From assembly GCA_024679065.1 (NCBI GenBank), contig JAGIQG010000016.1, positions 5,394,001-5,458,000 of the forward strand: a DNA stretch of 64,000 nucleotides. The letters run 5' to 3'. The first letter of the stretch is position 1. Each line of letters begins with the position of its first letter. Shown in pieces: positions 13,925-61,403 of this stretch. The position numbers were made by a program, and so were the translations under genes. Under the pieces are notes generated by a model. It did no database searches. It was not told the DNA's origin and worked only from the letters and a program-made list of their open reading frames with translations. The DNA is from Sphyrna mokarran. Its lineage: Eukaryota.

Positions 13925-14372
13925 AAATTGCCCCTTAGTGTCCAAAGATGTGCAGGTTAGCTGGATTGGCCATGCAAAATGGCTCCATAGTGTCCAAAAA
14001 TGTGCAGGTTAGGTAGACTGATCATGCTAAACTGCCACTTAGGTTCCAAAGATATTCAGGTTAGATGGATTGACCATGCTAAATTTCCCACTCGTGTCCA
14101 AAGATGTGCAGGTTAGCTGGATTGGCCATGCAAAATTGCCCTTTAGTGTCCAAAGATATTCGAATTAAGAGGATTGGCCATATTAAATTGCCTGTTCTGT
14201 CCAAAGATGTTCAGATTAAGTGGATTGGCCATGCAAAATTGCTTGTAAAGATCCAAAGTTTTGTAGGTTAGGTAGATTGAGCATGCAAAATGCCGCTTAG
14301 TGTCCAAAGATATTCAAGTGGGATGGATTGACCGCGCTAAATTTCCCATTCGTGTCCAAAAATGTGCAAAGA
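13925..14372 (+). repeat. Tandem array of a 52-bp unit derived from the V-SINE body (~8-9 units)
   Basis: Consensus unit GTCCAAAGATGTGCAGGTTAGGTGGATTGGCCATGCTAAATTGCCCCTTAGT repeated head to tail with variants. Confidence 0.9.
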
Positions 14373-14797
14373 TGTTGCCAACTTCTTTTTTATTTACAGC
14401 TCTTGCACCTTCCTCCCCAGTGGAGGGAATGGTGGTGCATTGTACCAGCAGGGGATGTGGATAACCCACTTGTACCTCCCTGCTCCAGAAGGAAAGTGAG
14501 GCCACACTGCAGGAGCTGAGTTGGTCCGGTCTGCAACACACCAGGGATAAATATATCGTGGTGTTGTCTTGCTTGATGCTCTGTCGCCCTTACAGGGTGG
14601 GGTGGATCTGTGAAACACACAGGGTATTGCTTTTTGGGACAAAAGTTGGAATCCCACCACAGCGGATGGTTAAATTTGAATCCAGTGAAAAAGCTGGAAC
14701 AAATAATCTAATAATGGCCATGTCGCAAAACATACATCCATCTGGTTCACTAGTATCCATATAGGTAAGGAAATACATTGTCCTCGGTGTGTGGTAT

Positions 14798-15420
14798 GGT
14801 GGCACAGTGGTTTACATTGCTGCCTCACCGTGCCAGGACCAGGGTTCAATTCCAGCTGTGGCTCACTGTCTGTCTGGACATTCTCCCCATGGCTGCGTAT
14901 GTTCCCTCCGCGTGCACTGTTTTCCACCTACACTCCAAAGACGTGCAAGCTACAGTGTTGACCATGCTAAGTTGCCACTTAATAATCAAGGATGTGTACG
15001 TTAGATGGATTGGTCATGTTAAATTGCCCTTTCATGCCCAAAATGTACAGGTTAGGTGGATTGGCTGTGCTAATTTGCCACTTGGTGTCCAAAGATGTGC
15101 GGGTTAGGTGGATTGATAATGCTAAATAGCCTGGAAGACTCCAAAGGTGTGTAAGTTAGTTGGATTAGCCATAAAAATTGTCTCCTAGTGTCATAAGGTG
15201 TGCAGGTTAGGTGGAGTGGCCTTGTTGAATTGCCTTTTAGTGTCCAAAGGTGTGGAGGTTAGGTGGATTAGCAATGCTAAATTACCGGTTATGTCCAAAG
15301 GTGTTCAGGTTAAGTGGATTGGCCATGCTAAATTGCCTGAAAGGGTCCTAATGTGCGCATGTTCAGTGGATTGGCCATGCTAAATTGGCGCTTATTGTCC
15401 AAAGGTTAGGGGGATTGGTC
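14798..15420 (+). repeat. V-SINE head followed by a 52-bp tandem array (~9 units)
   Basis: SINE head at 14798-14935 runs directly into the repeated 52-bp unit. Confidence 0.85.
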
Positions 15421-19626: not shown

Positions 19627-21049
19627 CTGTGAAAATGTGTCTGGATTTGTATCGAACCTGCAGAGCTCTGGGCCAAATGTGGGAAAGTGGGGCTTGGCTG
19701 GAAAGCTGATATCTCAGTCAGTGCACAGATAATGGGCTTTTCTGTGTTGTAAAAGGCAGCCAGTGATTCAAAGTTGATGGAAGTAAAGTGCAAAACGTAT
19801 TTTGTATAAATTGCAGTGATGTGTCTAACAGCATTGCTGATAGCAGCTTGCAAAATGATAATGATCTAGCACTTATTAAGGTTGGCATGATTATTTTATT
19901 TCCAGCCCACTAACTTCTCTTCATCTGCTTGGTCACACACTTTAGATTGTGGGGAGCAGATTAGATTTACAGTCTGAATGCATTCAGTTCCTTCTGTCCC
20001 GACTTTACACAGTCTTGAGAACAGTACACTTGTTTAGTGCACTTTATTTCATCACCTCTCTCTCTTTGCCTCTTGTCTTACCAAATTTGGAAGTAAAGAA
20101 AGCAGCCTCTTCATTTCTTCAATGGGTGGAGGTTTGGGCAGGTTCATAGCCAACCTACGCCCTCTTTCTGGATGCCCACTGCCCCTGATTGCCAGCATTT
20201 CAACGCAGATGCACAGAGGTGACACGGTGGCAGAGTGGGTTAGCACTACTGTCTCACAGCCCCAGGGGTCTGGGTTCGATTCCCAGCTCGGGTGACTGTC
20301 TGTGTGAAATTTGCACATTCTCGGGGATAGTGGTCAGTGCAGATCCGATGGGCTGAATGGCCTCTTTCTGCACAGTAAGGTTTCTATGACAATGACTCCA
20401 TGATACTGATCGCCTGCTCCTGCCAGGAACTATTTCAGAGAAGTTGAGGAGATATTTAGTCCCAGTTTAAAAGTTTTTGAAAAAAGTTTATTTATTAATG
20501 TCACAAGCAGGCTGACATTAACACTGAAATGAAAATCTCCGAGTCTCCACCTTTTTCGCGGACACTGCGGGGGAATTTAGCACGGCCAATGCACCTAACC
20601 AGCATGTCTTTCCGACTGTGGAGAGAAACCGGAGCACCCGGAGAAAACCCACCCAAACACAGGGAAAAGGTTCAAACTCCACACAGTCAGTGACCCAAGC
20701 CAGGAATCGAACCCAGGTTCCTGGTGCTATAAAGTAGCAGTGCTAACCACTGTATCACTGTGTTACCCAAGCTCTCAAAGAGGTGTTCCCAGTGTGGGGT
20801 GCTATTAGTATTGGAGATGGGAGGTTGGGCTGGTGTTGGAGGCCACATCCCAATTCTCAGACTCCCCTTCACTGTCACCTCTGGATCGTCTCCATTGAAC
20901 CTCTCAAACTTACTCAGCAGCCTGGTCAGAGAGTCTTTAGTGACATTGACATTTTATGGCCCATTTCTCAGTCCTCAATCCACTTGGGGTCACGTGTTAC
21001 AAATAGTTAGGACCTCATTCGCTAAGTTTAAAAGATGTATCCAATTTTT

Positions 21050-21785
21050 GATTTGATTTGTTATTGTCACAAACACGTGTTAGTATCCAGTGAAAAGCAT
21101 TGTTTCTTGCTCATTATACAGACCAAGCATATCGTTCATAGAGTACGTAAGGGAGAAGGAAATGAGAGAGTGCAGAGTGTAGTGTTACAGACGTAGCAAG
21201 GGGGTAGAGAGAGGTCAACTTAATATAGGGTAGGTCCATTCAGGAGTCTGATGGCAGCAGGGAAGAAACTGTTCTTGAGTCAATTGGTGATCTCAGGTTT
21301 TTGCATCTTTCTCCCGACAGGAGAAGATGGAAGGGAGTCTGTCCGGGGTGGTGGCGTTCTTGATTATACTGACTGCTTTTCCGAGGCAGTGTGAAGTGTA
21401 GATGAAGTCAATGATGGGAGGTTGGTTTGCATGATGGACTTGGCTATGCTCATCATCCTTTGTAGTTATTTGTGTTCCTGGGCAGAGCAGGGGCCATACC
21501 AAGCTGTGATACATGGGGAGAGCACACTTTTTATGATGCATCTGTAAAAACTGGTGTGAGTTGTGACGAACATGCAAAATTTCCTTAGTCTCTTGAGAAA
21601 GTAGAGACGTTGAGAGGTTTTTTTAACTATAGTGTTGGTGTGGAGGGACTAGGACAGGTTTTTGGTGTTCTCGACACCTAGAAACTTGAAGCGCTTGGCC
21701 ATTTCCACTTCATCCCTGTTGATGTAGACAGGGGCATGTTCTACACTGCGCTTCCTGAAGTCAACAATTGTCTCCTTCCTTTTAA
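21050..21785 (-). mobile_element. Rex1/Babar-type LINE RT C-terminal fragment (duplicate at ~62720-63455, +)
   Basis: Codons for FKFLGV..T.NLS.SLH...VKK..QRLYFLKRLRKF...FYRCI, a Rex1-like RT tail. Confidence 0.7.
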
Positions 21786-22361
21786 CTCCTGTTTGATTGG
21801 TGAGTTACAGACAGACCTGACTGAGGGTAAAGCTAATTGATCTCTGCGTGAAAAGGCACAATTAAACGGGAAGCTTTGTGAAGGTTGATTTATCCCAAAC
21901 TCCAATATATATGGTGCGAATACCAGTGAGTAATGTTATACGGAGAGACTGCAGGTACTGGGATGGATCTCCCTCCCATCAGGGAAATTAGAGATGGTGA
22001 AACTCTTTCTGGTTCTTGTGGTGTTGTAGGTTGGATGGTGGTACAATGATATTGTCACTGGAGGGGCAATAGTGGGTTTTCTCTGTAATTTTTCTATGGT
22101 CAGAGCTCAAGACAACTGGAAATATGATGATATTTTTACTGTTGTGGGGGAGTGGGGGAGGTGAAGCTGGAAAGGTGGGGCTGGGTAGAGGGCCAGTGAT
22201 AAGTGATAGCGAGGGAAGGACTGACAAAGATGCCCTGGACTACAAGACAAAGGGATTGCAAATGGTTGTGGTCACAACTTGGAAGGTTATTGATAGCTGC
22301 CATTAAGAGATCAGAATGTGTCAACGGCAGAACAACAGTAAGCAGTGTGACAAGGGATTGT

Positions 22362-23265
22362 ACGGTGGTACAATGGTTAGCACTGCTACCTCACAGTGCC
22401 AGGGTCCCAGGTTCAAATCCAGCCTTGGGTCACTGTCTGTGCAGAGTCTGCATGTTCTCCATGTGCCTGCATGGGTTTCTCTGAGCATTCTGCTTCCCCT
22501 CCACACTCCAAAGATTATAGATTAGGTGGATTTGTCATGCTAAATTGCTTCTTAGTGTCCCAAAACATGTAGATTGGTGGACTTACTGTGCTAACGTGCC
22601 AGTTTGCATCCAAAGATGTCTAGGTTAGGTGGATTGACCATGCTGAGTTGCCCCTTAGTGTCCAAAGAATGGCAGGTTAGGGGGATTAGCCATACTAAAT
22701 TGTTTCTCAGAGTACAGAGATGTGCACGTTATGTGGATTGCCATGATACATTGTCCTAAGTATTCAAAGATGTGGAGGTTAGGGGATTAGCCTTGCTAAA
22801 TTCTCCCTTAGTTTCCAGAGATGTGCAGGTTAGGTGAACTGGCCATGTTAACTTGCCCTTTAGTGTCCAAAGACGTGCAGATTAGATGGATTGGCAATGC
22901 TAAATTGCCCCTTAGTGTTCAAAGATGTACAGGTTAAGTGGATTGGCCATGCTAAATTGCCCCTTAGAGTTCGAAGATGTGCAGGTTAGGTGGATTGGCC
23001 ATGCTAAATTGTCCCTTAGTGTTCAAAGATGTACAGGTTAAGTGGATTGGCCATGCTAAACTGCATTTTAGTGTTCAAAAATGTGCAGGTAAAGTGGATT
23101 GGCCATGCTAAATTGCCCCTTAGTGTCCTAAGGTGTGCAGGTTAGGTGGATTGGCCGTGCTAAATTGCTCCTTACTGTCCAAAGATGCTCAGGTTAGGTG
23201 GATTGGCCATGCTAAATTGCCCCTTAGTGTCCAAAGATGTGCAGGTTAGATGGATTGACCATGGT
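22362..23265 (+). repeat. V-SINE head with a 52-bp tandem expansion (~14 units)
   Basis: SINE head at 22362-22505, then repeated 52-bp units; paralogous to 60054-61397. Confidence 0.9.
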
Positions 23266-23499
23266 GAATGCTGAGAATTATGTTGATAGAGCGAGGTGTG
23301 GACTTGTATGAGACGCTCTCTCTCTGAGAGGCAGGGGCCAAACAGCCTTCCTCTGCAATCCAGGCATTCAATGGTTCCATGGTACTTCCCTGAGCCAGGG
23401 AATCCAGGTCTGTTCCCTTCTCTGGAGAAACCCTGGATAACGCAAACAAGGCGATTGACATAATTCACAACAGGGACAGGAAGGGCTGGGATGAGGGAG

Positions 23500-25100
23500 A
23501 TGGGTCGGACATAGTTGAGAGCCCTGTCAATCACGGTGGACGGGAATCCATGATTACAGAAGAAGGAAGACTTATCAGCTGCTCCATTTTGGAAAGGGGC
23601 ATCATTGGAATTGATGCGACAGAGGCTCAGGAACTGAGAGAATGGGATGGAGTCTCACAGGATATGAGGTGTGAAGAGATGTAGTCATGGTGGCTGGAGG
23701 GAGCTGGTGTGCTTGCAATGGATAATGGTGGACAGAGGGGAGTTATAGGACAAAAGGTAAAATTATCCGGAGTATAGAGACGCAGAGAGACCTGGGGGTG
23801 CAGGTTCACAAGTCTCTGAAGGTGTCAGTACAGGTGGAGAATGTGATAAAGAAAGCCTATGGTATGTTAGCCTTCATGGGAAGGGATATAGAATACAAGA
23901 GTAGGAGTCTGATGTTGACGGTGTATAGATCGTTGGTTAGGCCTCACTTGGAGTACTGCGTCCAGTTCTGGTCGCCGTACTACCGGAAGGATGTAGAGGC
24001 CCTGGAGAGAGTGCAGAGGAGATTTACCAGGATGCTGCCTGGTAAAGGGCAGTCTTATGAGGAAAGATTGAACACACTGGGGTTGTTTTCCCTTGAAAGA
24101 TGTCGGCTGAGAGGGGATCTATTAGAGGTATATAAGATTATGAGGGGTACAGATAGAGTAAATGGTGGTAAGCTTTTTCCACCATTAGAAATGGATAGAA
24201 CAAGGGGTCACGGCCTCAGGGTGAGGGGAGCTATGTATAAGACGAATATTAGAGGGCAGTTTTTCACACAAAGGGTAGTGGGGGTGTGGAATGCACTGCC
24301 GAGTAAGGTGGTGGGAGCAGGCACGCTAGGGTTGTTTAAGGGTCTCTTGGACAGCCACATGAGCGGTCTGCAGATAGAGGGATGTAGCAGGACTGTCTAA
24401 ATATCGGGAGCTTTGGGACGACCAAATAGTATTAGAATATCTTTTAGTTTTGTCTCAGGGATGTCTCAGTTTTTCGCATGTTTAATAATGTCTTATTTGT
24501 TTTCACAGGCAATTCGGTCCACCTTGTTGACCAACAAGGTGCATGCATTCGGCAGGCCGTGCGAGGGCTGCTCTTTGATGTTGCTTCAGGAGTGGCCTAG
24601 TGCTTCACGTCGTGAGTGTGTGCTTAAACTGGACCATCTGATGGGCAACATGACAGCTCAGAGAGTATCGCTGTTGCTGTGCAGACACATGGATTTGGGC
24701 CTGTGTCTGCGAGAGTTTGCGCGTTCTCCCCGTGGCTGCGTGGGTTTTCTCCGGGTGCTCCGGTTTCCTCCCACATCCCAAAAATGTGCTCTTAGGCTGA
24801 TTGGGTAACAAATTGTCCCTATATTTGTCCCTATGTGGGACAATAGGCATAGCCTAAAGTCATGGATATGTCATTAAGACGTTAGGACGGCGGCGCGGGC
24901 TCGTTGGGCCGAAGGGCCTGTTTCCCGTGCTGTGTTGCTCTTTGTTCTTTGTTCTTTGAAATGGAGACAGAGAGGTTAAGGAAGGGAAAGGAAGCATCAC
25001 AGATGGACCCTGTGAAGATGACAGAGGGATAGAAATTGATCATTTTTTTCCAGACCCAGAAGAGAACATGAAGCGTCAGCGATACAGTTATCGATGTTCC
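23500..25100 (-). mobile_element. Penelope-like RT/linker fragment split by a CR1 insertion (uninterrupted paralog at ~59440-59830, +)
   Basis: Codons for SIPFSQFLSLCRINSNDAPFQNGAADKSSFFCNHGFPSTVIDRAL. Confidence 0.65.
23737..24957 (+). mobile_element. CR1 LINE 3' part (second subfamily) with long V-domain-containing 3' UTR; present only in the left arm
   Basis: Intact ORF 23798-24400 (RPHLEYCVQFWSP, FFTQRVV); UTR 24401-24957 ending (TTTGTTC)n; empty site at ~59582 in the right arm. Confidence 0.93.
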
Positions 25101-25439
25101 AGCATTTTCTGTTTCTGGTTAGTTTTATTATCGAACATGTTGCAGTTGTGTACCTGTCACAACACAGAGCGAGAGGAGAACATTACAAGCCTGTCTCTTA
25201 CTGTCAGCGCCTCTCCTGTGAGATGGGGTTGCCAGCAGAAATTAAGCTGCAGGATGTGTGAATAAAGAGGAAATGCTTATCGTGCATCAACATTTGAACA
25301 TAATGACAAAGCGGCAGTGGGGAAGAAAGCAGATGAGGTTTGTTGGGATAAAATTGAGAGGTCCCATTCTCCCTGAACGTTTCTCGATTCTATTTCTTGT
25401 AGAAACACAGGCGGATGATCCCAATGCAAAATAGCAGCA

Positions 25440-25479
25440 ATGGTTTGGAATTTAATTGTAATTCTCGCACTCCTCTGTG
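25440..25479 (+). CDS. Leader exon, copy L
   Basis: MVWNLIVILALLC+G followed by phase-1 donor G|GTGAGT. Confidence 0.8.
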
Positions 25480-25619
25480 GTGAGTTTCCAGCGCACAATT
25501 TGTTATTTGGGGTAGTTTTTGTTTCTGGAAAGTCCGTGTCTCTGCTCGTTAAATTCTGCTTGAAAACATCGGAAACTTTTCATTTTAGTTGCTTCATGTC
25601 ACGTGGGCTGGAAATATCA

Positions 25620-27245
25620 GTGTGTCAGTGTGAGTTGTGTTTGTGAGTGTGTGTATGTGTATGTGTGTATGCCATGTGTCTGTGCTTGTGTGGGAGTGTC
25701 TGTGCGAGTGTGTATGTGTGAGTGCGTGTGAGTCTGTTCATGTGTGAGTATATGTGTGCGAGAGTGTGAGTGTAAGTATATGATTGTGTAAATGTGTGTG
25801 TGAGAGTGTGTGTGCATGTGTGTGTGTGTGTGTGAGTGTGTGTGTATGTCAGTGTTTGTGTGTCAGTGTGTGTGGGTGAGTGTTAGGGAGTGTGTGACTG
25901 AGTGAGTGTGTTGCCTAAGTGTGCGTGTGTGTGTGTGAGAGAGAAAGAGAGAGAGAGAGAGAGAGTGTGAGTGTGTGTATGTGATTGTTTGTGTGGATGT
26001 GTGTGAGTGTGAACATGTGTGTATGGTGTGAGTGTGTGTATATATGGCTGTGTGTGAGTGAGTGTGTGTGTGTGTTGTGTGTGTGGGTGTGTGAGTGTGT
26101 GTGGGTGTATGAGAGTGTGCGCGAAGTGTGTGTGTATGAGAGTGTGTGTGTGTCTAAATGGGTGTGTGTGTGAGAGTGTGTGAGTGCGTGTATGTGATTG
26201 TGTGTGTGAGTGTGAATGTTTGTGTATGGGTGTGAGTATGTGTGTATGTGGGTTTGTGTGAGTGAGTGTGTGCATGTGTGATAGAGTGTGTGCATATGAG
26301 TGTGTGTATATATGTGTGTGTGTGTGTGAGAGAGAGAGAGAGTGTGAATGTGTGTATGTGATTGTTTGTGTGGGTGTGTGTGAGTGTGAACGTGTGTGTA
26401 TGGGTGTGANNNNNNNNNNNNNNNNNNNNNNNNNNNNNNNNNNNNNNNNNNNNNNNNNNNNNNNNNNNNNNNNNNNNNNNNNNNNNNNNNNNNNNNNNNN
26501 NNNNNNNNNNNNNNNNNNNNNNNNNNNNNNNNNNNNNNNNNNNNNNNNNNNNNNNNNNNNNNNNNNNNNNNNNNNNNNNNNNNNNNNNNNNNNNNNNNNN
26601 NNTGAGTGTGTGTATGGTGTCCATGTGAGAGAGAGTGTGTGGGTGTGTCTGGGTATGGGTGAGAGTGACTGTGTGGGTGTGTGTGTGTCAGAGTGTGTGT
26701 GTGTGCGAATGTGTATGTGTGTNNNNNNNNNNNNNNNNNNNNNNNNNNNNNNNNNNNNNNNNNNNNNNNNNNNNNNNNNNNNNNNNNNNNNNNNNNNNNN
26801 NNNNNNNNNNNNNNNNNNNNNNNNNNNNNNNNNNNNNNNNNNNNNNNNNNNNNNNNNNNNNNNNNNNNNNNNNNNNNNNNNNNNNNNNNNNNNNNNNNNN
26901 NNNNNNNNNNNNNNNNNNNNNNNNNNNNNNNNNNNNNNNNNNNNNNNNNNNNNNNNNNNNNNNNNNNNNNNNNNNNNNNNNNNNNNNNNNNNNNNNNNNN
27001 NNNNNNNNNNNNNNNNNNNNNNNNNNNNNNNNNNNNNNNNNNNNNNNNNNNNNNNNNNNNNNNNNNNNNNNNNNNNNNNNNNNNNNNNNNNNNNNNNNNN
27101 NNNNNNNNNNNNNNNNNNNNNNNNNNNNNNNNNNNNNNNNNNNNNNNNNNNNNNNNNNNNNNNNNNNGTGAGTGTGTTTTGTGTGTATGTGTGTGTGTGT
27201 GAGTGAGTGTGTGTGGGTAAGTGAGTGAGTGAGTGTGTGTGAGAG
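25620..27245. repeat. (TG)n-rich low-complexity tract with N gaps (paralog (CA)n at 56883-57397)
   Basis: Seen directly. Confidence 0.95.
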
Positions 27246-28972
27246 TCTATATAAAATGAAGATTATCAAATATGACAGTGACAGCCCATTTGGTCCCTTG
27301 TGTTTGCTTGATGTTATTTACTGATCTTTGAGCACAAACTTTAAACCACTTAATTAATGAATCTTGGAGATTTTGTTACTCACTGGGTCCACCAGTGCCT
27401 GTGGGTTTGGAAGGTGCTGCCTCAGGAGCCTTGGTGAGTTCCTGCAGTGCATCTTGTGGACTGTACATCCAGCTCCCACTGTGTGACGGTGGTGGAGGGA
27501 GTGAGTGAGTGTGGATAGGATGCCAGTCAAATGGGGTTGCTTTGTCCTGGATGATGTGTAGTCTTGAGTGTTGTTGGAAAATTGTGCTATTGGGTGAAAA
27601 TTCTGACATGCAGTTGCAGTGGCAAAAAATAAATGTCAAGTGATGGTCGTATGTCCTTAATCACAGATTTGTTACGATGCAGAAGGAGGCCATTCAGCCC
27701 ATCGTCCTATATCAGCTCAGCCAATCAGCATCATGACTTACTGCCATCCTCCTGTCTTTCCCTGAACCCCTGCACGCTGCTTCTATTCAATAATCATCTC
27801 ATACTCTCTCAAATTCCTCAATTGATCCCACCTCCACCGCACTTTGAGGCAGAACATTCCAGAACCCAGCCGCTTGCTGTGTGAAAAAATAACATCCCAT
27901 CTGCTTCTTTTGCCAATAGCTTTAGCAATGTGATGGGACAGTTCCTGGGGTTATCCTGGAAGAGACAAGGAGGCAGTAGCTCACTGCAGGATTATTTGGG
28001 CCCCTTTCAAGTCCTCGGTCGGGGGATGGTGTTTGAAGTACCATCAAAATCGGAATAGCAGAACACCATTTTCCGGGCACTTGCTGCTTTCCCACATCCC
28101 TACAATTTTCCCCCCTGAAATTCCATTATTTGCCCCATTGGGACAGCAGGGAGGCACAGTGGTTAAGCACTGCTGTCTCACAGTGCCAGGTACTTGGGTT
28201 CAATTCTGGCCTTGGGTGATTTTCTGTGCGGAGTTTTCCCTGTGTCTGGATGGGTTTTCTCCAGGTGCTCCCGTTTCCTCCCACACTCCAAAGATGTGTG
28301 GGTTAGGTTGATTGGCCGTGCTAAATTGATCCTAGCATCGGGGAATTAGCAGGGTAAATAAGTGGAGTTATGGGGATAGGACCTGTGTGGGATTGTGGTC
28401 GGGGCAGAATTGATGGGCCAAATGGCCTCCTTCTGCACAGTAGAGATTCTAAGATTTGACATGTGCTGGATAATGAAGCGATGCCCCATCAGTTGCTGCT
28501 CTTTGCTGCAGGAGAAGGGATTGGAAATGTACTCCAGAGACTGAGAGTATATTGCCCACTTTACCCACAGACCCTTGTCTCAGTGTTGCTGCATTTGTGT
28601 TCGATTCCAAGAAACCTGTGCAGGAATCCCCAGGAGAAATTGTTCTCCGTCGCCAGTATCTGTGGCGCTGTCATCACAGTATTCTCCAGCCTCGCCTGTG
28701 GCTGGGATTCTCCAGACCCGCTGCTGCGGACAGAGAGCGCCAAATTTTTCCATTCTCGCTGCCGAGAATTCTGATCAGTAATGCCTCCACAGTTTAGCAT
28801 GTCCCTTTTACTGATGTTGCCGGAGTGATTCTGTGCAGTTGCACTTCCGAAACTGTTGAGGATTTTGCTGCTTTAATGAGAGTTTGAACCTGAATTGAAA
28901 GTGAAACAGCTCCTGGAAAGTTTGCTAATGGACTCAATGCGAGTTGTTCTTGCAGTTACTGCCAGGTTACAG

Positions 28973-29263
28973 GGGTGACACTCACTGCTTTTGCTGGGAC
29001 AGACTTGCTACTCCCCTGCCAAGGAACAGGATACATCACAACATTAATGTACCTTGCCTGGAAGAGGATTATTGAAAAGAATGATATTGTTGTGCTCAGA
29101 CCTCAGAACGAGATAAACTTCCCAAATCCACATTATTCCAGTCTTCAGAAACAATTGGATGGATCCATTCTATTAAATTCTTTGCAAATGCAGGATATTT
29201 GTGAGATCTCTTCATTGTCTCAAAGAATTAAACAAAGAAAAATCATGAATTTGACAGTAATAG
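28973..29263 (+). CDS. Ig V-set exon, copy L (damaged)
   Basis: VTLTAFAGTDLLLPC...LAWKR...GSILLNSLQMQD[----]ICEI...MNLTV has the B-strand Cys, C-strand Trp and F-strand Cys. The in-frame phase-1 acceptor is at 28972; an alternative AG at 28955 is out of frame. Confidence 0.8.
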
Positions 29264-30093
29264 ATGTGTATTTTCCCAGGAGTGATGTTGAAGCGGAGGG
29301 TAAATGTAATAATCATACGGGCAGTGTATTAGACTCTGCATCCAGGTGAGAACTGAATACCTCTGCAATCATCATTAGAATATTGCTGCACCATTCTAGT
29401 GTTTGAATCCAGCCACGTTCTAGGTCAGACTTGTATCAGAGAGTTTGTAGTGAAATGTCTTGTTAGCAGTTGCTCAGTGGTTGTGAGTGGAGTGTGGGAC
29501 GGTGGCACAGTAGTTAGCACTGTTGCCTCACAGCTTCAATTGCTGGCTAGGGTCACTGTCTGTCTGGAGTCTGCACATTCTCTTCCTGTCTGCGTGGGTT
29601 TCCTCCAGGTGCTCTGGTTTCCTCCCACAGTCTGAAAGACCTGCTGGTTAAATGCATTGGCCATGCTAAATTCTCCAAACAGATGCCGGAGTGTGGCACC
29701 TCGGGGATTTTTCACAGAAACTTCATTGCAATGTTAATTAAACCTATTTATGACCAATAATTAATTTTAGGGTTATTTTAAAATGGATTGATTAGCCTTC
29801 TCCCATTACCGGGACTGACATTCTGCAACAGAAATGTGTTAGTACGCCTTATTCCTTGCAGGAATACAAAGGAAAATGGTGAATGTGAGGCCTGTAGGAG
29901 TGTATTCCCCCCGGAATATTGAAGGTTTATCTGTAGTGATGCCTAACAATCCTGTATTGGTGTTGGGGATGTGGATGACACAAAAAATAAGTGGGAAGCT
30001 AAGTGGTTCGCACAACTGCTTCGCACCTCCAGGGACCTGAGTTTGATTGATTCCCTGCTTGGGTCACTGTCTACGTGGGTTTCACCTGGGGAG

Positions 30094-30125
<32 letters not shown>

Positions 30126-31744
30126 AAGCATGGGGGGATGCTCCTGTTTCTTTTCACAGTCCAAAGAATTGAAAATGTGCAACACTTCTTCTTGCTAATA
30201 GCTGCGGGGGGTGGCAGAGAACAAATTCACATCAGTGTCAATGATGCAACATTCATCCCACAGAGAGCAGAATCCCTGCAGAAGGAGGCCATTCAGCCCA
30301 TCTTCATTGACAACAATCCCGCTCCAGCCCCTATCCCCACAAATTTACCCCACTAATCCCTCCAACCTACACATCCCAAGGTAATGTGGGCAATATGGTG
30401 TGGCCATTTGGTCTACCGAGGGGATATAACCAGGTTAAGTGAGTGGGCAAAATAAACTTGGCTGACGGATTGCAATGTAGGGAAAATGTGGAGTTACGCG
30501 CTTTAGTAGGGAGAATAAAGACACTTAATATTATTCAAACAGAGAAAGATTGCAGGAAGCTTCAGTGCAGAGGGATCTGGGAGTCCTAGTGCATAAATCA
30601 CAAAAAGCTTGCGTGCAAGGTGAGCGGGTGATAAAGAAGGCAAACGGCATTTGTTTCAAAGGGAATAGAGTGTAAAAATAGGGAAGTCTTGCTAAAACTA
30701 TATAAGGTATTAGTTAGACCACACTAGGAATACTGAGAGCTGTTCTGGTCCCCTTATCTAAGGAAACATATACTGTCATTGGAGGTAGTTCAGATACAGT
30801 TCACTGGGTAGATCCTGGGCAGGGAGGGATTTCCTTATAAGGAGAGGTTGAGTGGATTGAACCTGTGCTCATTGGAGTTTAGAACATTGAGAGGTGACCT
30901 TACTGAGACATATAGGGGGCGATTCTCCCATTCCGACATGCTAATTTTTTTGGCCGCGGATGGGGTCGGAGGATGTGTGTGTGAGCCGATTCATGGATAC
31001 ACGCGTGCGTTCCCAACTCATGCATGTCTCCAGTAAGTATGAGCCACACAGGAAACTGGCGGGGATACTTCAGTCTATTTTTAATGCGATTCAGATGTAA
31101 TTATTAGGCCGGAGGCTGAATTTTCCAGGCCTGATAGCGTCTCCCACTCTGTCAATACAAATTCACTCCAGCAGGGTTTAGAGCAGCTGGGGAGAAGAGG
31201 GGGTCACCCGGGGCGTGGGAGTGTGTGGGGGGGGGGGGGGGGGGGGGGGGGATGTTGGTTGGCAGGGAGTGGTGCCTCCCCCCCCACCGTGTATAGGCAC
31301 CCTGGCAGGGTAAGCCTGTGCCTGCTGGCAATGCCCCAGAGAAAAAGTGCCCATGCAGACGGGGCTCCTTGGCACTGCCCGTCTGGCATTGGGTCTTGGG
31401 CTGGTCAGCAATCGAGCTGGGCAGCAAACTGCAGGCTGGCTGTTCGGGGCCACTGCGCGTGGGCAGAGTCCCAGAACTGTCAGATTCCGGTGTTTCGGAT
31501 GAGAGAGCATAATCTCAGAGTAAGAAGTCACCCGTTGAAGACACAGAAGAGGAGAAATTTCTTCACCCAGAGGGGAGTGAATCTGGGAATCTAGACAAAT
31601 TTTTAGCACTAAGGGTAAAGGATGTTTCTAGATTATAAACAATCGCATTACTTATTATTTTCCTGCTCATTTCTTTGGTTTTCCAATGTCTTCTTCCTTC
31701 TTTTCTCACTTTCCCAGTTTTTGTTTCTCTCTCTTCCAGACCAT

Positions 31745-32003
31745 AGGGCTTGTGTCTGCGGGAGTTTACGCGTTCTCCCCGTGCTTGCGTGGGTTTTCTC
31801 CGGGTGCTCCGGTTTCCTCCCACATCCCAAAGATGTGCTCTTAGGCTAAAAACTTCTCCCTAAATTATCTCAAATTTGGTTTTTAATCCATAGATCTATA
31901 AACATAGACAGGGATCGCGGGTAGAGGTGGGAACATTGGGGTGGCGGCGCGGGCTCGTTGGGCCGAAGGGCCTGTTTCCTGTGCTGTTTTGTTCCTTGTT
32001 CTT
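31745..32003 (+). mobile_element. Heavily 5'-truncated copy of the V-domain CR1 3' UTR
   Basis: Matches 9345-9600 from GGGCTTGTGTCTGCGGGAGTTT to the TTTGTTC tail; no tRNA head. Confidence 0.85.
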
Positions 32004-32119
32004 TATACATTGGGTTATTTGACATTTGAAATATTGATCTGTTTCATGTCTCCGTTCTATGTTAATGACAAGACTATTGAAACTGACATTGAATTGATTT
32101 TTTGTTAATCTCCCCCAAG

Positions 32120-32741
32120 TAATTCCCATCAACACAGCGATAACAATTCCCGCAACAGTTGACCTTTCAGAAGTGCTTGTGGCAAAATATGTTTCAGTAA
32201 AAGCGAACCCTCCAAACGGGATCAGAATTATAGACCCTACAGTGCAGAAAGAGGCCTTTCAGCCCATTGAGTCTGCACCGAACGCAATCCCAGCCTGGCC
32301 CTATCCCCATCCCCCTACATATTATACCCACTAATCTCCCTAACCTACGCATCCCTGGATACTAAGGGGCAATTTCTTAGCATGGTCAATCAACCTAACC
32401 TGCACATCTTTGGACCGTGGGAAGGGACCGGAACACCCGAGGGAACCCATGCAGGTGAATGTGCAAACTCCACACCCAGTGACCCGAGCCAGGAATCGAA
32501 CCCAGGACCCTGGAGCTGTGAAGCAGCAGTGCTAACCACTGTGCTGCCATCAGGTGGATTTCCAATCTCCGTGGAAACTATACAACAACCCAGGTCAAAA
32601 GCGGCAGTGGAACAACAACTGTCACCAGCCTGTATAAGATGGTACCCACTCATTCCACTAATGGTCAAGAAGTGACTTGTGTTGTCTCCCATCCAGCATC
32701 GCGTGGCAACATTACATTCACAAGGAAACTATCCATCCTCT
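32120..32741 (+). pseudogene. Nectin-type C-domain exon, copy L, interrupted by a SINE
   Basis: Removing 32226-32553 leaves a 294-nt open phase-1/phase-1 exon: IPINTAITIPATVDLSEVLVAKYVSVKANPPNGIRWISNLRGNYTTTQVKSGSGTTTVTSLYKMVPTHSTNGQEVTCVVSHPASRGNITFTRKLSIL, ending T|GTAAGT. This resembles the nectin domain-2 motifs VAxCxSxxGxPP..W and GTxTVxSxYxLVP. Confidence 0.85.
32226..32548 (-). mobile_element. HE1-type V-SINE inserted into a coding exon, TSD ATCAG
   Basis: ATCAG at 32221-32225 and 32549-32553; absent from the paralogous exon at ~52825. Confidence 0.92.
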
Positions 32742-33074
32742 GTAAGTCTCCTGTACAAAGTTTAATCCAATTAGAGACACACTGTAGCAAACTCCTGCTC
32801 AATTGGAACAGGATTAAATTTATCTCATTGAGTTTCCGGGTATCTGCAACAACAGGGTTTCTGAGATGTTCGGAACGAGGGGTTTTGTTTGATTTCACCA
32901 TCCGTCCATTTGTAAACCCCATCTGAATATATTAAATATGTCAAAGACTAACATATTGTTCCAGAGCACAGATTTAAGCAAATATCTGGTGGGTGTACAG
33001 TTATTAAATCACTCGTTTGCAGAAATTCAAGGTTACTTTAACTTTGGCCAATTTGGTCTCATGATAAAGGGCAG

Positions 33075-52515: not shown

Positions 52516-52650
52516 TTCCCAACCTCTGAGAAACCCTATCATTGCAGATACCGAGAAATTCAGTGAGATAACCTTGTTCCAATTGAGTAGAAGTTTGCTA
52601 CAGTGGGTCTATAATTGGATTGAATTATTTGTCTTTGTACAGGGACTTAC

Positions 52651-52917
52651 AGAAGATTATTAATTCCATTGTCAACGTAAGGTTGCTACGCGATGCTGGG
52701 TGGAGAAAACACAAGAGACATTTTTGACCGTCAGTGGAATGAATGGGTACCAACTTGTCCAGGCTGGTGACAATTGTTGTTCCATTGTCACTTTTATTCT
52801 GTTCCTTGGAGATTGGAAATCCACCTGATCCTGGTTGGAGGGTTCCCTTTGGCTGACACACATTTTGCCACAGGCACTTCTGAAAGACCAATTGTGTCAT
52901 TGTGTTGATGGGATTTA
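52651..52917 (-). pseudogene. Nectin-type C-domain exon, copy R (internally frameshifted)
   Basis: Splice sites CCTAG| and T|GTAAGT are intact. The ancestral frame gives EVPVAKCVSAKGNPPTRIRWISNLQG, then DNGTTIVTSLDKLVPIHSTDGQ. The exon is 27 nt shorter than in copy L. Confidence 0.8.
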
Positions 52918-54860
52918 CTAGGGGGGGATTAACCAGAAACCGGTTCAGTGTCAGTTTCAATATCTTGTCATTAAAATAGAACAGAAACATGAAACAGATG
53001 AATATGTCAATGCCCCCAAATGTTAAATAGCCCAATGGACTCCCAGATCCCTCTGCACTGCAGCTTTCTGCAGTCTTTCTCCATTTAAATAATATTAAGC
53101 ATCTTTATTCTTCCTACTAAAGTGCGTAACTCCACATTTTCCTTATATTACAATCCATCAGTTTATTTTCCCAACTCACTTAACTTGGTTGTATCCCTCT
53201 GGAGGCCAAACGGCTGAGAATCATTGGCCTCCCAGCCGTGTGATTCCCCTGGGCGGGAGGAGGAATGTTGTTTGATAATGGCAGGAAATTCTGCCACCCC
53301 CAATCTCAATGAGAACTCTCATTGGTATCATTTCCCCCTGCCCCTCTCGGGGGGGGGGGGAAATCTGCACGCAAGGGTGGGCTACCGGTGGGACTGGAAA
53401 ACCCTGCTGGAGAATTCAGCCTTTGTGCCCTCCTTGGCACTTGCCTTCCCACCTATCGATGTGTCGTGTGCAAACTTGGCATCAGTCTCTTCGCTTCCCT
53501 CATCCAAGTCATTAATATTTATTGTAAGTAACTGTGGCTCCAGCACTGATCCCAGCGACTCTCCTCGAGTTACATTGCGGACTGCGACCCTCCCAGAGTG
53601 GGAGAAGGTGGATATAATGGACTTTAATCACCTCACATTCACAACCTCCTTTTCAATGAAAGCTTCCTACATGAGCAGAGAATAATCAAGTATCACATTT
53701 GTGACCCTGTACTAAAACTGACCATGGGGGCTAACACAGACTTAGAATGAAGAATTGAAAATGTGCAACACTTCTTGTTGATAACTGCGGGGAGTGGCGG
53801 GGGGGGAACAAATTCACTTCAATATTCATCCCACATAGAATAGAATGCCTGCAGTGCAGAAGGAGGCCATTCAGCCCATTAAGTCTGCATTGACAACAAT
53901 CCCGCTCCAGCCCTTATATCCACAAATTTACTCCGCTAATCCCTCTAACCTGGACACCCCAGGATACCGTGGGCAATATAGTGTGGCCAATCAACCCCTA
54001 ACCCACACATCTTTGGACTGAGGAAAGAAACCAGAGCCCCCGGAAGGAAACCCACGTAGACAGTGACCCAAGCAGGGAATCAATCAAACTCAGGTCCCTG
54101 GAGCTGTGAAGCAGTTGTGCGAATCATTGTGCCACACTTACCTTCCCACTTATTTTTGTGTCATTCACATCCCCAATATAGGATTGTTAGGCATCACTAC
54201 AGATAAATCTTCAATATTCCAGGAGGAATACAGTCCTACACATTCACCATTTTCCTATGTATTCCAACAAGGAATAACGTGTAGTCGCACATTTCTGTTG
54301 CAGGATGTCTATCCTAGTAATGAGAGAAGCCTAATCAATCCATTTTAAAATAATCCTAAAATTAATTATTGGTCACAAAATAGGCTTACATTAACATAGC
54401 AATGAAGTTACTGTGAAAATCCCCTCGTCGCCACCTGTTTGGCACAGCGAGGGAGAATTTAGCATGTGCCAATGCGCCTAATCAGGAAACCAGAGCATCC
54501 AAAGGAAACCTACACAGACGGAGAAATTGCAGAGTCCACGCAGGCAGTGACCCAAGCTCGGAATTGAAGCTGGGTCCCTGGCGCTGTGAAGCAGCAGTGC
54601 TAACCACTGAGCCACCGTATTGTCCTCCCACTCACAACCATGCGGTAACCGCTAACCACATATTTCATTACAAACTCTCTGATGCATTTCTGAGCTCGAA
54701 TGTGGCTGGATTCAAACATGAGAACGATGCAGCAATATCCTGGTGATGTTTGCAGAAGTATTCAGTTCTCACAATGTAATACACTGCCCCATTCCTCCTC
54801 CCCAACCCGATTTTTACACTGGCCTCCACGCATCAATAATGCCCCTGGCAAAATATATAC

Positions 54861-55160
54861 CTCCAACGATCAAATTCATTGTTTTCCTTTGTATTTCTTG
54901 AGACAATGAAGAGATCTCACAAATATACATTCCCTCATCCTGCATTTGCAAAGAATTTAATAGAATGGATCCATCCAATTGTTTCTGAAGACTGGAATAA
55001 TGCGGATTTGGGAAGTTAATCCCGTTCTGAGGTCTGTGCACAACAATATCATTCTCTTCAATATCCCTCTTCCAGGCAATGTACATTAATGTTGTGATGT
55101 ATCCTGTTCCTTGGCAGGGGAGTAGCGAGTCTGTTCCAGCAAAAGCTGTGAGTGTCACCC
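54861..55160 (-). CDS. Ig V-set exon, copy R (intact)
   Basis: VTLTAFAGTDSLLPCQG...IAWKR...GSILLNSLQMQDEGMYICEISS...MNLIVG+G|GTATAT, with the canonical D-x-G-x-Y-x-C motif. Confidence 0.88.
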
Positions 55161-57398
55161 CTGTAACCTGGCAGTAACTGCAAGAACAACTCGCATTGAA
55201 TCCATTAGCAAACCTTCCAGGAGCTGTTTCACTTTCAATTCAGGTTCAAACTCTCATTAAAGCAGCAAAATCCTCAACAGTTTCAGAAGTGCAACTGCAC
55301 AGAATCACTCCGGCAACATCAGTAAAAGGGACATGCTAAACTGTGGAGGCATCACTGACCAGAATTCCCGGCAGCAAGAATGGAAAATCTGGCGCTCTCT
55401 GTCCGCGGCAGCGGGTCTGGAGTATCCCAGCTGCGGGCGAGGCTGGAGAATACAGTGATGAGAGTATACCAGCGATGGAGAACAATTTCTCCCGGGGATT
55501 CCTGCACAGGTTTTTTGGAATCAAACACAAGTGCGGCCAAACTGAGACAAGAGTCTGTGAGTAAAGTGGGCAATATACTCTCAGTCTCTGGAGTACATTT
55601 CCAATCCCTTCTCCGATAGCAAAGAGCAGCAACTGATGGGGCATCGCTTCATTATCCAGCACATGTCAAATCTTAGAATCTCTACTGTGCAGAAGGAGGC
55701 CATTCAGCCCATCAATTCTGCCCCGACCACAATCCCACCCAAGTCCTATCCCCATAACTCCACTTATTTACCCTGCTAATTCCCCGATACTAGGGTCAAT
55801 TTAGCACGGCCAATCAACCTAACCCACACATCTTTGGAGTGTGGGAGGAAACGGGAGCACTTGGAGGAAACCCATCCAGACACGGGGAAAACTCCGCACA
55901 GAAAATCACCCAAGGCCAGAATTGAACCCAAGTACCTGGCACTGTGAGACAGCAGTGCTTAACCACTGTGCCTCCCTGCTGTCCCAATGGGGCAAATAAT
56001 GGAATTTCAGGGGGGAAAATTGTAGGGATGTGGGAAAGCAGCAAGTGCCCGGAAAATGGTGTTCTGCTATTCCGATTTTGATGGTACTTCAAACACCATC
56101 CCCCGACCGAGGACGTGAAAGGGGCCCAAATAATCCTGCAGTGAGCTACTGCCTCCTTGTCTCTTCCAGGATAACCCCAGGAACTGTCCCATCACATTGC
56201 TAAAGCTATTGGCAAAAGAAGCAGATGGGATGTTATTTTTTCACACAGCAAGCAGCTTGGTTCTGGAATGTTCTGCCTCAAAGTGTGGTGGAGGCAGGTT
56301 CAATTGAGGAATTTCAGAGAGTATGAGATGATTATTGAATAGAAGCAGCGTGCAGGGGTTCAGGGAAAGACAGGAGGATGGCAGTAAGTCATGATGCTTA
56401 TTTGTTGAGCTGATACAGGACGATGGGCTGAATGGCCTCCTTCTACACTGTAATAATTCTGTGATTAAGGACATATGACCTTCATTTGAAATTTATTTTT
56501 TTGCCACTGCAACTGCGGGTTAGGATTTTCACCCAATAGCAGAATTTCCCAACAACACTCAAGACTACACATCATCCAGGACAAATTAACCCCACTTGAT
56601 TGGCATCCTATCCACACTCACTCACTCCCTCCACCACCGTCACACAGTGGGAGCTGGATGTACAGTCCACAAGATGCACTGCAGGAACTCACCAAGGTTC
56701 CTTAAGCAGCACCTTCCAAACCCACAGGCACTGGTGGACCCAGTGAGTAACAAAATCTCCAAGATTCATTAATTAAGGGGTTTAAAGTTTGTGCTCAAAG
56801 ATCAGTAAATAATGTCAAGCAAACACAAGGGACCAAATGGGCTGTCACTGTCATATTTGATAATCTTCATTTTATATAGACTCTCACACACACTCACTCA
56901 CTCACTCACACACACTCACACAAAACACACTCACACACACAAAACAAAAACACACACACACACACACATGCACTCACTCACACACATNNNNNNNNNNNNN
57001 NNNNNNNNNNNNNNNNNNNNNNNNNNNNNNNNNNNNNNNNNNNNNNNNNNNNNNNNNNNNNNNNNNNNNNNNNNNNNNNNNNNNNNNNNNNNNNNNNNNN
57101 NNNNNNNNNNNNNNNNNNNNNNNNNNNNNNNNNNNNNNNNNNNNNNNNNNNNNNNNNNNNNNNNNNNNNNNNNNNNNNNNNNNNNNNNNNNNNNNNNNNN
57201 NNNNNNNNNNNNNNNNNNNNNNNNNNNNNNNNNNNNNNNNNNNNNNNNNNNNNNNNNNNNNNNNNNNNNNNNNNNNNNNNNNNNNNNNNNNNNNNNNNNN
57301 NNNNNNNNNNNNNNCACACGTGCTCACACACTTACAAATAGACATACATACACACACACAAACACACATACACACACCTACCCACGCACACACACATT

Positions 57399-57953
57399 GG
57401 GCCCAATTTTACTACATTGATTCTGTGTTGGGTGGACTTAGAACTGGGAATATTTCTGTACCATCTCTTAGATCAAATCTCAGGCGCCTCCATTCTGCCT
57501 GAAGAAATAGCAGCGATTGTGAATCGTGCTGTAGAAACCTGTGGGTGGAGTTATCGGCCCTGAAACACTGCAGCTCCAATCGGAGCAAAAACATCCCCTG
57601 ACACATCACTCCCGGGCTGGATAACACCTCTCCCCGAACCCACACAGATATTGTTCCACGCTCACAACATAACTGACCCCCCTATCCCCCTACCCTCCCG
57701 TGACCCAGACCGGCCATGACCCCCCCTGACCTCCTCCCCTCACCCGGGGGGCCTTCGGAACCCGCCTCCGTCTCCTCCACCGGGGAATCACCTGACCCAC
57801 CTCGGGGATGGTCTCGATGGTGACCATTTTCAGCCATTGGCGAAGAGGGAACCGGGTGCGAAGGAGGGCGCGGATTGTGCTGCTCACCTTGCGCCCGACT
57901 TTACCAGGCTTCAGCGCCCGAAAACAGGCGCAACCGGATGGTAAAATCAGACC
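57399..57953. mobile_element. Possible GC-rich non-autonomous DNA transposon (MITE-like)
   Basis: Imperfect terminal inverted repeats GGCCCAATTTTAC / GTAAAATCAGACC inside a CA-repeat tract. Confidence 0.4.
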
Positions 57954-59062
57954 ACCCTTCCTCATGCACGCCCGCGTAATAAAACACATGCACTCACGCA
58001 CACTCACAGACACAATATATATGAATCTACTTGTGCACTCATAAATATCATCGATCGCAATGTTCGGTGATAATTGCATAATATTCAGTACCATCCATCA
58101 CTGCTCAGGTATCGTTATGTGCAGCAAAAGCAACGTTCATGGTTTAACCAGCAAGAGAAAAGTAAGATTGGTATCACACAAGATCCCCACACTGGGCATC
58201 TCCACCTAGAGAGATTCCAACTATTTCCCCTTGAAATTCAACTCAATCGCATTGCTGGATCCCGAACTGTTAACATCCTGGGAATTGTTATTGGCCAGAA
58301 ACTCAACTTAAGCAGTTATATAGATACACGAGGAGGTTAAAGACAGGGAATTCTGAACGACTAACTCTTCCGAACCTGCCCTGCGCCTACAAAGCACCAG
58401 TAAAGGATGGAATGGAATTCTGTCTACTTGCCTTGAATGAGTGAATGAATAAGAAGTTCGACACCATCCAGGACAAAACACTCGCTTGATCGGCATCCCA
58501 ACCACAAACGTTCGATCCCTCCACCACCACGGAGTCATGTGCGTTATCTACAAGATGGGCTGCAACAAATCACTGATGTTCCAGCAACTTCCAAACTCAC
58601 GGCTGCTATCACCTGGAAGAAGTCTCCCAACACCAGGTTTAAGTCCCGGTTTAAACCTGGTGTTGTGAGACTTCTTACTGCGTTCACTCCAGTCCAACAC
58701 CGGCATCTCTACATCATAACCATCTAGAAGGACACGGGAAGCAGATTCCTAGGAAGACCATCACTTGGCAGTCCCCCTCCGAGTCACTCACCATCCGGGC
58801 TTGGAAATATATTGGCTACTCTTCACTGCAGCTGGATCGAGATCCGGGAACAGCGCGATGGGCGCTCCTACATCTCAGGGATGGCAGCGGTTCAATAATA
58901 ATTACAGATGGGAAATAAACACTGATATTTCCAGCCCACGTGACATGAAGCAACTAAAATGAAAAGTTTCTGATGTTTTCAAGCAGAATTTAACGAGCAG
59001 AGACACGGACTTTCCAGAAACAAAAACTACCCCAAATAACAAATTGTGCGCTGGAAACTCAC

Positions 59063-59102
59063 CACAGAGGAGTGCGAGAATTACAATTAAATTCCAAACC
59101 AT
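59063..59102 (-). CDS. Leader exon, copy R
   Basis: Identical to copy L: MVWNLIVILALLC+G|GTGAGT. Confidence 0.8.
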
Positions 59103-60053
59103 TGCTGCTATTTTGCATTGGGATCATCCGCCTGTGTTTCTACAAGAAATAGAATCGAGAAACGTTCGGGGAGAATGGGACCTCACAATGTTATCCCAAC
59201 AAACCTCATCTGCTTTCTTCCCCACTGCCGCTTTGTCATTATGTTCAAATATTGATGCACGATAAGCATTTTCTCTTTATTCACACATCCTGCAGCTTAA
59301 TTTCTGCTGGCAACCCCATCTCACAGGAGAGGCGCTGACAGTAAGAGACAGGCTTGTAATGTTCTCCTCTCGCTCTGTGTTGTGACAGGTACACAACTGC
59401 AACATGTTCGATAATAAAACTAACCAGAAACAGAAAATGCTGGAACATTGATAACTGTATCGGTGACACTTCATGTTCTCTTCTGGGTCTGGAAAAAAAT
59501 GATCAATTTCTATCCCTCTGTCATCTTCACAGGGTCCATCTGTGATGCTTCCTTTCCCTTCCTTGACCTCTCTGTCTCCATTTCTGTCCACCATTATCCA
59601 TTGCAAGCACACCAGCTCCCCCCAGCCACCATAACTACATCTCTTCACACCTCATATCCCGTGAGACTCCATCCCATTCCCTCAGTTCCTGAGCCTCTGT
59701 CGCATCAATTCCAATGATGCCCCTTTCCAAAATGGAGCAGCTGATAAGTCTTCCTTCTTCTGTAATCATGGCTTCCCGTCCACCGTGATTGACAGGGCTC
59801 TCAACTATGTCCGACCCATCTCCCACATCCCAGCCCTTCCTGTCCCTGTTGTGAATTATGTCAATCGCCTTGTTTGCATTATCCGGGGTTTTTCCAGAGA
59901 AGGGGACAGACCTGGATTCTCTGGCTCAGGGAAGTACCATGGAACCATTGAATGCCTGGAGTGCAGAGGAAGGTTGTTCAACCCCTGCCTCTCAGAGAGA
60001 ACGTCTCATACAAGCCCATACCTCGCTCTATCAATATAATCCTCAGCATCCAC

Positions 60054-61397: not shown

Positions 61398-61403
61398 ACA
61401 GTC

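Follow-up and report, generated by a model that had tools for sequence, protein, structure and literature searches.

The window considered here is the whole 64,000-nt stretch of Sphyrna mokarran DNA that was analysed, taken from a genome of 2.77 Gb in which tRNA-headed V-SINEs and CR1-like LINEs are abundant. On its forward strand, positions 23734-24400 hold the 3' end of a CR1 ORF2 belonging to a 5'-truncated copy of subfamily s1. The open reading frame itself runs from 23726 to 24400, with a TAA stop codon at 24398-24400, and alignment to the full-length relative L116 (~4.66 kb) begins at about 23734. This C-terminal piece returned no Pfam match; in L116 the ORF2 frame is open over 991 codons and lies above the Pfam cut-off for both Exo_endo_phos (3e-14) and RVT_1 (6e-30), that is, for an APE endonuclease and a reverse transcriptase. 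The ORF1 of L252 matches Lipase_GDSL_2 with an E value of 4e-7 and 31.1 bits, below the cut-off of 32.9. The host element is taken to be a CR1 on the basis of its ORF1 type and tail type. Like the canonical vertebrate CR1 of the shark HER1 type, which has an esterase ORF1 and an APE-RT ORF2, it combines a sub-threshold GDSL/SGNH-like match in ORF1 with an endonuclease and a reverse transcriptase in ORF2, a stem-loop tail with short repeats and heavy 5' truncation. It differs by its 3' UTR, which is ~460-640 nt long instead of ~100 nt and comprises a splice-acceptor-like signal, a long stem and the front end of a V-SINE, and by the A-runs in which its youngest subfamily, s3, ends.

The same cassette is carried by three s2 copies, which alignment of the window copies places at 9130-9602 and 61649-62132 on the forward strand and at 2183-2672 on the reverse strand, the last in an element that runs on to ~5117. 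An earlier note on this sequence had described a conserved multi-hairpin RNA module at 24509-24712, shared by subfamilies that cannot be aligned just past the stop codon. The region past the stop does differ in both length and sequence, and the four window copies are collinear over ~200 nt, with 152 of the 205 alignment columns invariant. This stretch is nevertheless a composite of three parts and not a single module. Its proposed limits have to be moved on both sides: conservation begins ~25 nt upstream of 24509, at an acceptor-like signal that the note had missed, and the V-domain beyond the 3' limit is more conserved than the 5' domain (3/88 vs 24/125 differences between s1 and s2).

Exact matching of a 22-mer of the module yields at least 33,956 genomic copies (reversed control, 0). 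A sample of 800 kb, made of 80 hand-chosen 10-kb stretches, contained 19 module matches and one weak match on the head of a free V-SINE; the 19 have scattered start points or extend into the LINE, and no independent short copy starting at the head was present among them. The carriers are four subfamilies of one autonomous CR1 clade, s1 to s4, of which s4 is an older one and s3 the youngest (40/40 scored copies are 99-100% identical). In a tree of 98 CR1 ORF2 ends, all taken from the S. mokarran genome, the 10 module-bearing rows fall without exception in one clade (support 100/99), and short-UTR families that lack the cassette make up 56 of the rows. Downstream sequence was inspected for 22 non-module relatives; their UTRs are short or absent, and none contains a V-domain. 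Since the module is confined to one clade and these other UTRs are devoid of a V-domain, a single capture is the simplest reading, and the cassette is of single origin within the sampled CR1s. An exact 24-mer search of viral contigs for a viral origin gave 0 matches. Two patterns searched in metagenome contigs for other species gave 0 matches each.

Several other observations were made on the same elements and in the same window. At the ORF1/ORF2 junction, ORF1 ends on the heptamer T TTA AAC and a stop codon, followed by G-runs (L116, minus strand, near position 4470 of that locus; L252, L262-L264, L214, L152). The -1 frame is the one in which ORF2 is open, and it lacks an in-frame ATG at the junction. 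The heptamer, which we take to be a slippery sequence of the coronavirus type, is conserved in s1, s2, s3 and two other CR1 copies, and the G-runs are a possible G-quadruplex stimulator. This arrangement suggests that a -1 frameshift may yield ORF2 fused to ORF1; a literature search listed nothing specific on it. The 5' UTR contains a TATAAAA box, ~150 nt in from the 5' end and thus downstream of the apparent element start (L112, L114, L252, L254, L258), and it is kept between s2 and s3. The window also contains an inverted segmental duplication (20600-32900 vs 52600-63900) with Ig-domain-like exons, those at 28894-29349 and 32522-32926 on the forward strand being mirrored by 54814-55239 and 52625-53104 on the reverse strand. 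Tandem arrays of a ~52-nt unit derived from the V-SINE post-V segment occupy 13940-15340, 22600-23270 and 60050-61150.

The splice-acceptor-like signal

The stop codon is followed by a T-rich, dispensable spacer (24401-24480, forward strand) that is missing from s3 and deleted in most s1 copies. Next to it, at 24481-24508 on the same strand, lies the acceptor-like signal, composed of a branch-like T(T/C)RAY, a polypyrimidine tract and CAG, with 24509 as the exon-side G; the conserved block starts exactly after the AG (24508|24509). The distance from stop to acceptor is 21 nt in the s1 consensus, 81 nt in s2, 19 nt in s3 and, judged by eye, roughly 170 nt in s4; it is 119 nt in the window copy, whose module lies 108 nt past the stop codon, against 21 nt in most s1 copies. 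Compared with s4 and the long s1 copies, the spacer shrinks in s2, short s1 and s3, while the last ~20 nt before the AG stay, and the acceptor is kept in s1-s4 although the sequence farther upstream diverges. Ranked by pyrimidine content, it comes first of the 206 YAG sites of an s2 element and tied second of the 196 of an s3 element, and it is intact in 16,755 exact s2 copies. At the level of sequence, the branch point, pyrimidine tract and YAG|G of a 3' splice site are all present in this candidate acceptor.

It may be asked whether the acceptor is used. Splicing would then run from a donor in the 5' UTR or just past the ORF1 stop to this acceptor, and the product, a subgenomic RNA that is either ORF1-only or non-coding and has the folded cassette as its terminal exon, would tune the ORF1p/ORF2p ratio or the activity of the element. 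This reading, considered unlikely, draws on the exact start of the conserved block at the AG, on the survival of the acceptor in four subfamilies, and on a donor-like AG(A/G)|GTAA found ~59 nt past the ORF1 stop in s1, s2 and s3 amid divergent surroundings. It also has precedents among LINEs: zebrafish L2 RNA is spliced, and L1 RNA reportedly is too, leaving spliced retrocopies (SpIREs). The donor-like sequence is, however, one of 14 conserved donor-like columns, none of which is distinctive. Moreover, a spliced RNA would bear the tail and be copied in trans. Spliced retrocopies were sought as module starts preceded by purines, which gave 30 copies in s2, beside the 16,755 intact ones, 7 in s3 and 6 in s1, using junction patterns that reach 8/22 (s2), 12/29 (s3) and 8/29 (s1) of the donor-like sites of at least 6 bits. 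Within this partial donor coverage, a GT donor of the element is found at the junction in none of the 43 purine-junction copies. All are read as 5' truncations or small deletions, and the 30 s2 copies are close, by rough arithmetic, to what ordinary truncation would give. The element resembles the L1 that gives rise to SpIREs in its internal splice signals and departs from it in the absence of spliced products among these 43 candidates; within the reach of this search, it is an unspliced RNA that is retrotransposed.

Other candidates were set aside. At locus L025, the junction of ORF2 and module falls on a CAG common to both and not on a GT donor. A 5'-truncated s2 copy at 31746-32012 starts a few bases past a long host pyrimidine tract and CAG; its upstream flank is absent from the other 39 scored matches. 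A coding exon downstream of the acceptor was likewise rejected, the frames being interrupted by stop codons, and differently so in s1, s2 and s3.

Predicted fold of the module and probable selection on pairing

The 5' domain (24516-24635, forward strand) is predicted to fold into P1, a 6-bp closing helix (24516-21 with 24630-35), and P3 (24540-24624), an imperfect stem of ~35 bp in which several G.U pairs are unchanged in 10/10 aligned copies. The side hairpin P2 (24522-24539, forward strand) is broken or deleted in the youngest subfamily, s3, and can therefore be regarded as dispensable. Two more hairpins, P4 (24653-24680) and P5 (24681-24710), lie farther 3', where they refold the remnant of a SINE head described below.

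Some of the helices proposed by the earlier note were confirmed: s1, s2 and s3 all retain the GGTCC/GGACC closing helix, the ACAGC/GCTGT pairing and the GCAGAC/GTCTGC hairpin. The hairpin built on CCTTGTT was not confirmed: it is broken in s3, where 3 of its 7 pairs are lost, and deleted in an s3 variant (2 of the 3 s3 copies in the 800-kb sample). Two others were discarded. CGGC-ag-GCCG needs both a T>C variant present in 5/36 s1 copies and a 2-nt loop, and in the alignment-consensus structure CGGC pairs across the long stem instead; CCAT..ATGG appears in neither alignment-consensus structure and is broken in s3 and s4 copies.

The fold is better than that of shuffled sequences. The window copy reaches -81.4 kcal/mol (z -2.14; 4/200 shuffles as good), and the consensus z values are -3.0 for s1, -4.2 for s2 and -2.3 for s3. 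The first 125 nt, that is the 5' domain, give -4.9, -4.0 and -3.9 in the same order, and the last 75 nt -1.9, -2.5 and -1.0. The sense strand folds better than the antisense (-3.0/-4.2 vs -1.8/-2.9). The statement that no known RNA family is involved agrees with Rfam, which has 0 matches in the window at the gathering threshold and, at E up to 10, only chance matches (2, 0 and 1 in three scans) and no ribozyme family. It holds for the ~120-nt 5' domain, for which no source and no Rfam match were found, and fails for the last ~70 nt, which are very probably a B-box-deleted tRNA head of a V-SINE. Likenesses to an IRES, SRP, 7SK, 5S or Y RNA, a snoRNA, telomerase CR4/5 or a pri-miRNA were considered and have no Rfam support.

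Catalysis, one of the functions that had been envisaged, fares poorly under the same scans. A self-cleaving ribozyme that trims the transcript is highly improbable: a loose HDV-like descriptor has 4 matches in s1 and 0 in s2 and s3, there is no hammerhead core and no twister motif, Rfam adds no ribozyme family, and cleavage at this place would part the ORFs from the tail.

Selection on pairing was assessed in several ways, all of which rest on three to four related lineages of one genome. When the structure derived from s1 and s2 is applied to s3, 59 of 69 pairs are kept, against 51.2 +/- 2.7 in 1000 matched simulations (P 0.002); taken separately, the 5' domain gives P 0.06 and the 3' half 0.047. 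The s3 5' domain folds at -47.1 kcal/mol vs -37.0 in simulations (5/300 as low), and the energy test on the whole s3 module gives P 0.09. Among 159 distinct full copies, pairs are broken by 3 of the 25 non-CpG substitutions that at least 4 copies share, where 9.4 are predicted by a base-matched null (P 0.002), and by 89 of 162 private ones. In a 10-row alignment, 8 of 64 pairs are changed on both sides (5/500 shuffles), a count that does not amount to independent covariation because the 10 rows represent three lineages. One change in P5 preserves its pair, from A-U to U.G in s3. Signs of such selection are seen in the long stem and in two small hairpins. Selection quite probably acts on RNA pairing, and the proposal of a structured cis-element under selection is upheld by the pair-retention and shared-versus-private tests.

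A probably captured V-SINE segment

A probable remnant of a tRNA-derived V-SINE head of the HE1 type occupies 24642-24711 on the forward strand; its A-box region is decayed and an 18-nt B-box segment is gone at ~24693/24694. The free V-SINE of the window is presumably HE1. The head consensus used for comparison was built from 47 free V-SINE copies of the same genome. Over 50 ungapped positions, the window remnant (s1) shares 30 with this consensus, with 0/1000 shuffles as good; s2 shares 27 (5/1000) and s3 26 (9/1000). A profile of the module also matches the free HE1 head (E 1.3e-4). Other tests speak against the match: an HMM of the HE1 head leaves s1 and s3 undetected and gives s2 3.2 bits (16/1000 shuffles as high), and gapped local alignments to the head are non-significant, with 184 to 1490 of 2000 shuffles as high. 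Aligned end to end, head, V-domain and post-V segment come in this order, with a single gap of 18 nt that covers the B box and is clean in s1 and s2. At 24711-24822 (forward strand), V-domain and post-V segment are collinear with the HE1 consensus, and a V-domain of about 80 bp is recognised by comparison with the free V-SINE consensus of this genome. The A and B boxes needed by Pol III are no longer intact, the B-box segment being missing. It is with good confidence, then, that the 3' part of the module is derived from a V-SINE.

The HE1 V-SINE of sharks and rays, a member of the V-SINE superfamily (Ogiwara 1999/2002), is listed as a pair with the HER1 LINE in PMC3747384. The cassette is collinear with it over the probable head remnant, the V-domain and the post-V segment; in the cassette, however, the B box is deleted, the A box is decayed, the whole lies inside an autonomous Pol II element and the tail is of the host LINE's type. 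A neutrally diverging spacer (24823-24887, forward strand), in which s1 and s2 differ at the four-fold rate, separates the V-SINE part from the CR1 tail stem-loop and TTCTTTG repeats (24888-24958, forward strand). The stem-loop itself (24888-24933) folds at about -27.6 kcal/mol in s1-s3, with differences at 0-1 of 45 sites between subfamilies, and this type of tail is shared with the short-UTR CR1 relatives, which have no module. Since the tail resembles that of these sister LINEs and not that of HE1, the cassette probably came in upstream of a tail that the LINE already had; for the same reason, a 3' transduction that stops at the tail of the SINE itself is disfavoured. TTCTTTG repeats end 25/26 s1 and 27/28 s2 copies, and A-runs end 19/23 s3 copies (L187-L211). 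Within the CR1 group, a survey of these elements restricts poly-A tails to Zenon (PMC13343379).

The reverse direction, in which the LINE UTR would be the source of the V-domain of shark SINEs, is very remote. The homology of the heads is modest, and LINE origins of SINE bodies have been proposed in a section of Kojima 2018 (PMC5786205); the LINE nevertheless keeps probable remnants of a tRNA head with its B-box gap, the clade with the module branches from within CR1s that lack it, and V-SINEs range from cnidarians and molluscs to fish according to parts of PMC4824008 and PMC5804259. A parallel to such a capture is MER6, a MITE carrying a headless V-SINE (PMC6887750, in part). There too, a mobile element took up and spread a V-SINE fragment without a working promoter. 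MER6 is, however, a non-autonomous DNA transposon, whereas the present carrier is an autonomous retroelement in which reduced V divergence was measured between active subfamilies.

Among s1-s3, 8/88 V sites are variable vs 129/280 four-fold ORF2 sites. The spacer, counted with the post-V stretch, differs between s1 and s2 at 36/99 sites vs 16/46 four-fold sites, which is the neutral distance. Differences unique to s2 affect 88/280 four-fold ORF2 sites, 18/123 sites of the 5' domain (P 3.5e-4), 5/74 of the 3' half or head remnant (P 1e-5) and 3/88 of the V-domain (P <1e-5). On the long branch that separates s2 from s1 and s3, the 3' half and the V-domain have thus diverged less than neutral sites. 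On the s3 branch, no sequence constraint was detected: the 3' half (6/74) and V (5/88) do not differ significantly from four-fold sites (23/280). The s3 5' domain has 18/123 changes vs 23/280 four-fold (0.146 vs 0.082 per site), in the faster direction (P 0.07). The combination of a fast 5' domain with a kept fold in s3 (L187-L211) was noted as a possible escape from sequence-specific silencing.

These rates bear on whether the cassette does anything for its host. It could be a passenger, moved between subfamilies by exchange of 3' UTR patches, its fold being a by-product of its tRNA and SINE ancestry. The lack of sequence constraint on the s3 branch, the dispensability of P2 and the existence of sister families without the cassette all fit this improbable reading. 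Yet s4 and s1 share ancestral module states, judged by eye, as the ORF2 tree predicts, and pair retention exceeds two different nulls. A dispensable cassette should also have been trimmed as the upstream spacer was. Finally, the spacer between V and tail stands at the neutral distance, so that patch exchange would require two extra breakpoints. Alternatively, the V-domain and head remnant might work at the DNA level, as an enhancer or factor site for transcription of the element, leaving only the 5' stem to act as RNA. V is the most conserved sequence of the cassette and regulatory roles have been proposed for SINE conserved domains (in parts of PMC4824008 and PMC6887750); the pair-preserving change in P5 falls inside the head remnant, however, and this division of labour is hardly probable either.

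Proposed role of the cassette

Recognition by the reverse transcriptase had been suggested as a function of the module. The tail stem-loop at 24888-24933 is the better candidate and the likely ORF2p recognition site: recognition of a terminal stem-loop by the reverse transcriptase has been shown for zebrafish LINEs (PMC4176376, in the part considered), and the sister families share this tail without having a module. With catalysis unlikely, docking of the reverse transcriptase more plausibly placed elsewhere and the retrotransposed RNA unspliced at the junctions searched, the favoured reading is that of a cassette captured once between stop codon and tail and kept because it acts in cis in the handling of the full-length LINE RNA, which stays unspliced, a reading to which a probability of roughly 0.45 is given. 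Several observations weigh against it, among them the lack of sequence constraint on the s3 branch, the P values of 0.06 and 0.09 in the 5'-domain pair test and the whole-module energy test, the success of short-UTR CR1 families without the cassette and, in the L1 precedent, the finding that the 3' UTR and the CTE are non-essential (PMC3045867).

In the scenario of a handling signal, capture would have happened through a template switch or through recombination, the donor being a transcript or locus of the host in which a V-SINE lay behind the end of an intron. Loss of the B box would have silenced a competing Pol III promoter. The orphan acceptor and the folded cassette could together make the 3' end of the RNA resemble a terminal exon, and the cassette may constitute a protein-binding platform for 3'-end formation, stability or nuclear export, in the manner of the retroviral CTE and RTE; ORF2p would still dock on the terminal stem-loop. 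That the acceptor and cassette aid one of these three steps is possible, although somewhat short of an even chance. L1 is described in the consulted part of PMC3045867 as having an export element at the border of ORF2 and 3' UTR. Export elements of the CTE/RTE type promote the export of unspliced RNA and bind NXF1 or RBM15. The CTE, the RTE and the L1-NXF1 element are, like the cassette, structured RNAs placed just 3' of pol or ORF2 in an unspliced retroelement RNA, but no sequence or Rfam similarity to it was found and the likeness is one of functional analogy only.

Among the papers listed by a literature search, none reports a V-domain or an acceptor in a CR1 3' UTR; the family may already be present, unremarked, in repeat libraries such as Repbase and Dfam or in the supplements of PMC5786205 and PMC13343379. 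The structure of the 3' UTR is not treated in the part consulted of a CR1 survey of 2026 (PMC13343379), and papers from 2016 and 2018 state that no SINE conserved domain had until then been found in a LINE.

The broader interpretation, which is offered tentatively and with appreciable doubt, is that a LINE adopted the conserved domain of a SINE and keeps it under selection without its Pol III promoter. V would then be a portable helper of retrotransposition acting at the RNA level, set within a retrovirus-like processing or export cassette together with an orphan acceptor and a new long stem, which s3 remodels while keeping the fold. Central domains of SINEs, V among them, have been conserved over hundreds of millions of years for reasons that are still sought. 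Here, V resides in an autonomous LINE and has diverged at about one tenth of the neutral rate on the long s2 branch; with sister families that lack V and subfamilies carrying natural deletions, its role is testable by deletion in reporter and retrotransposition assays. For the host, tens of thousands of acceptor-bearing insertions could serve as exon traps in its genes.
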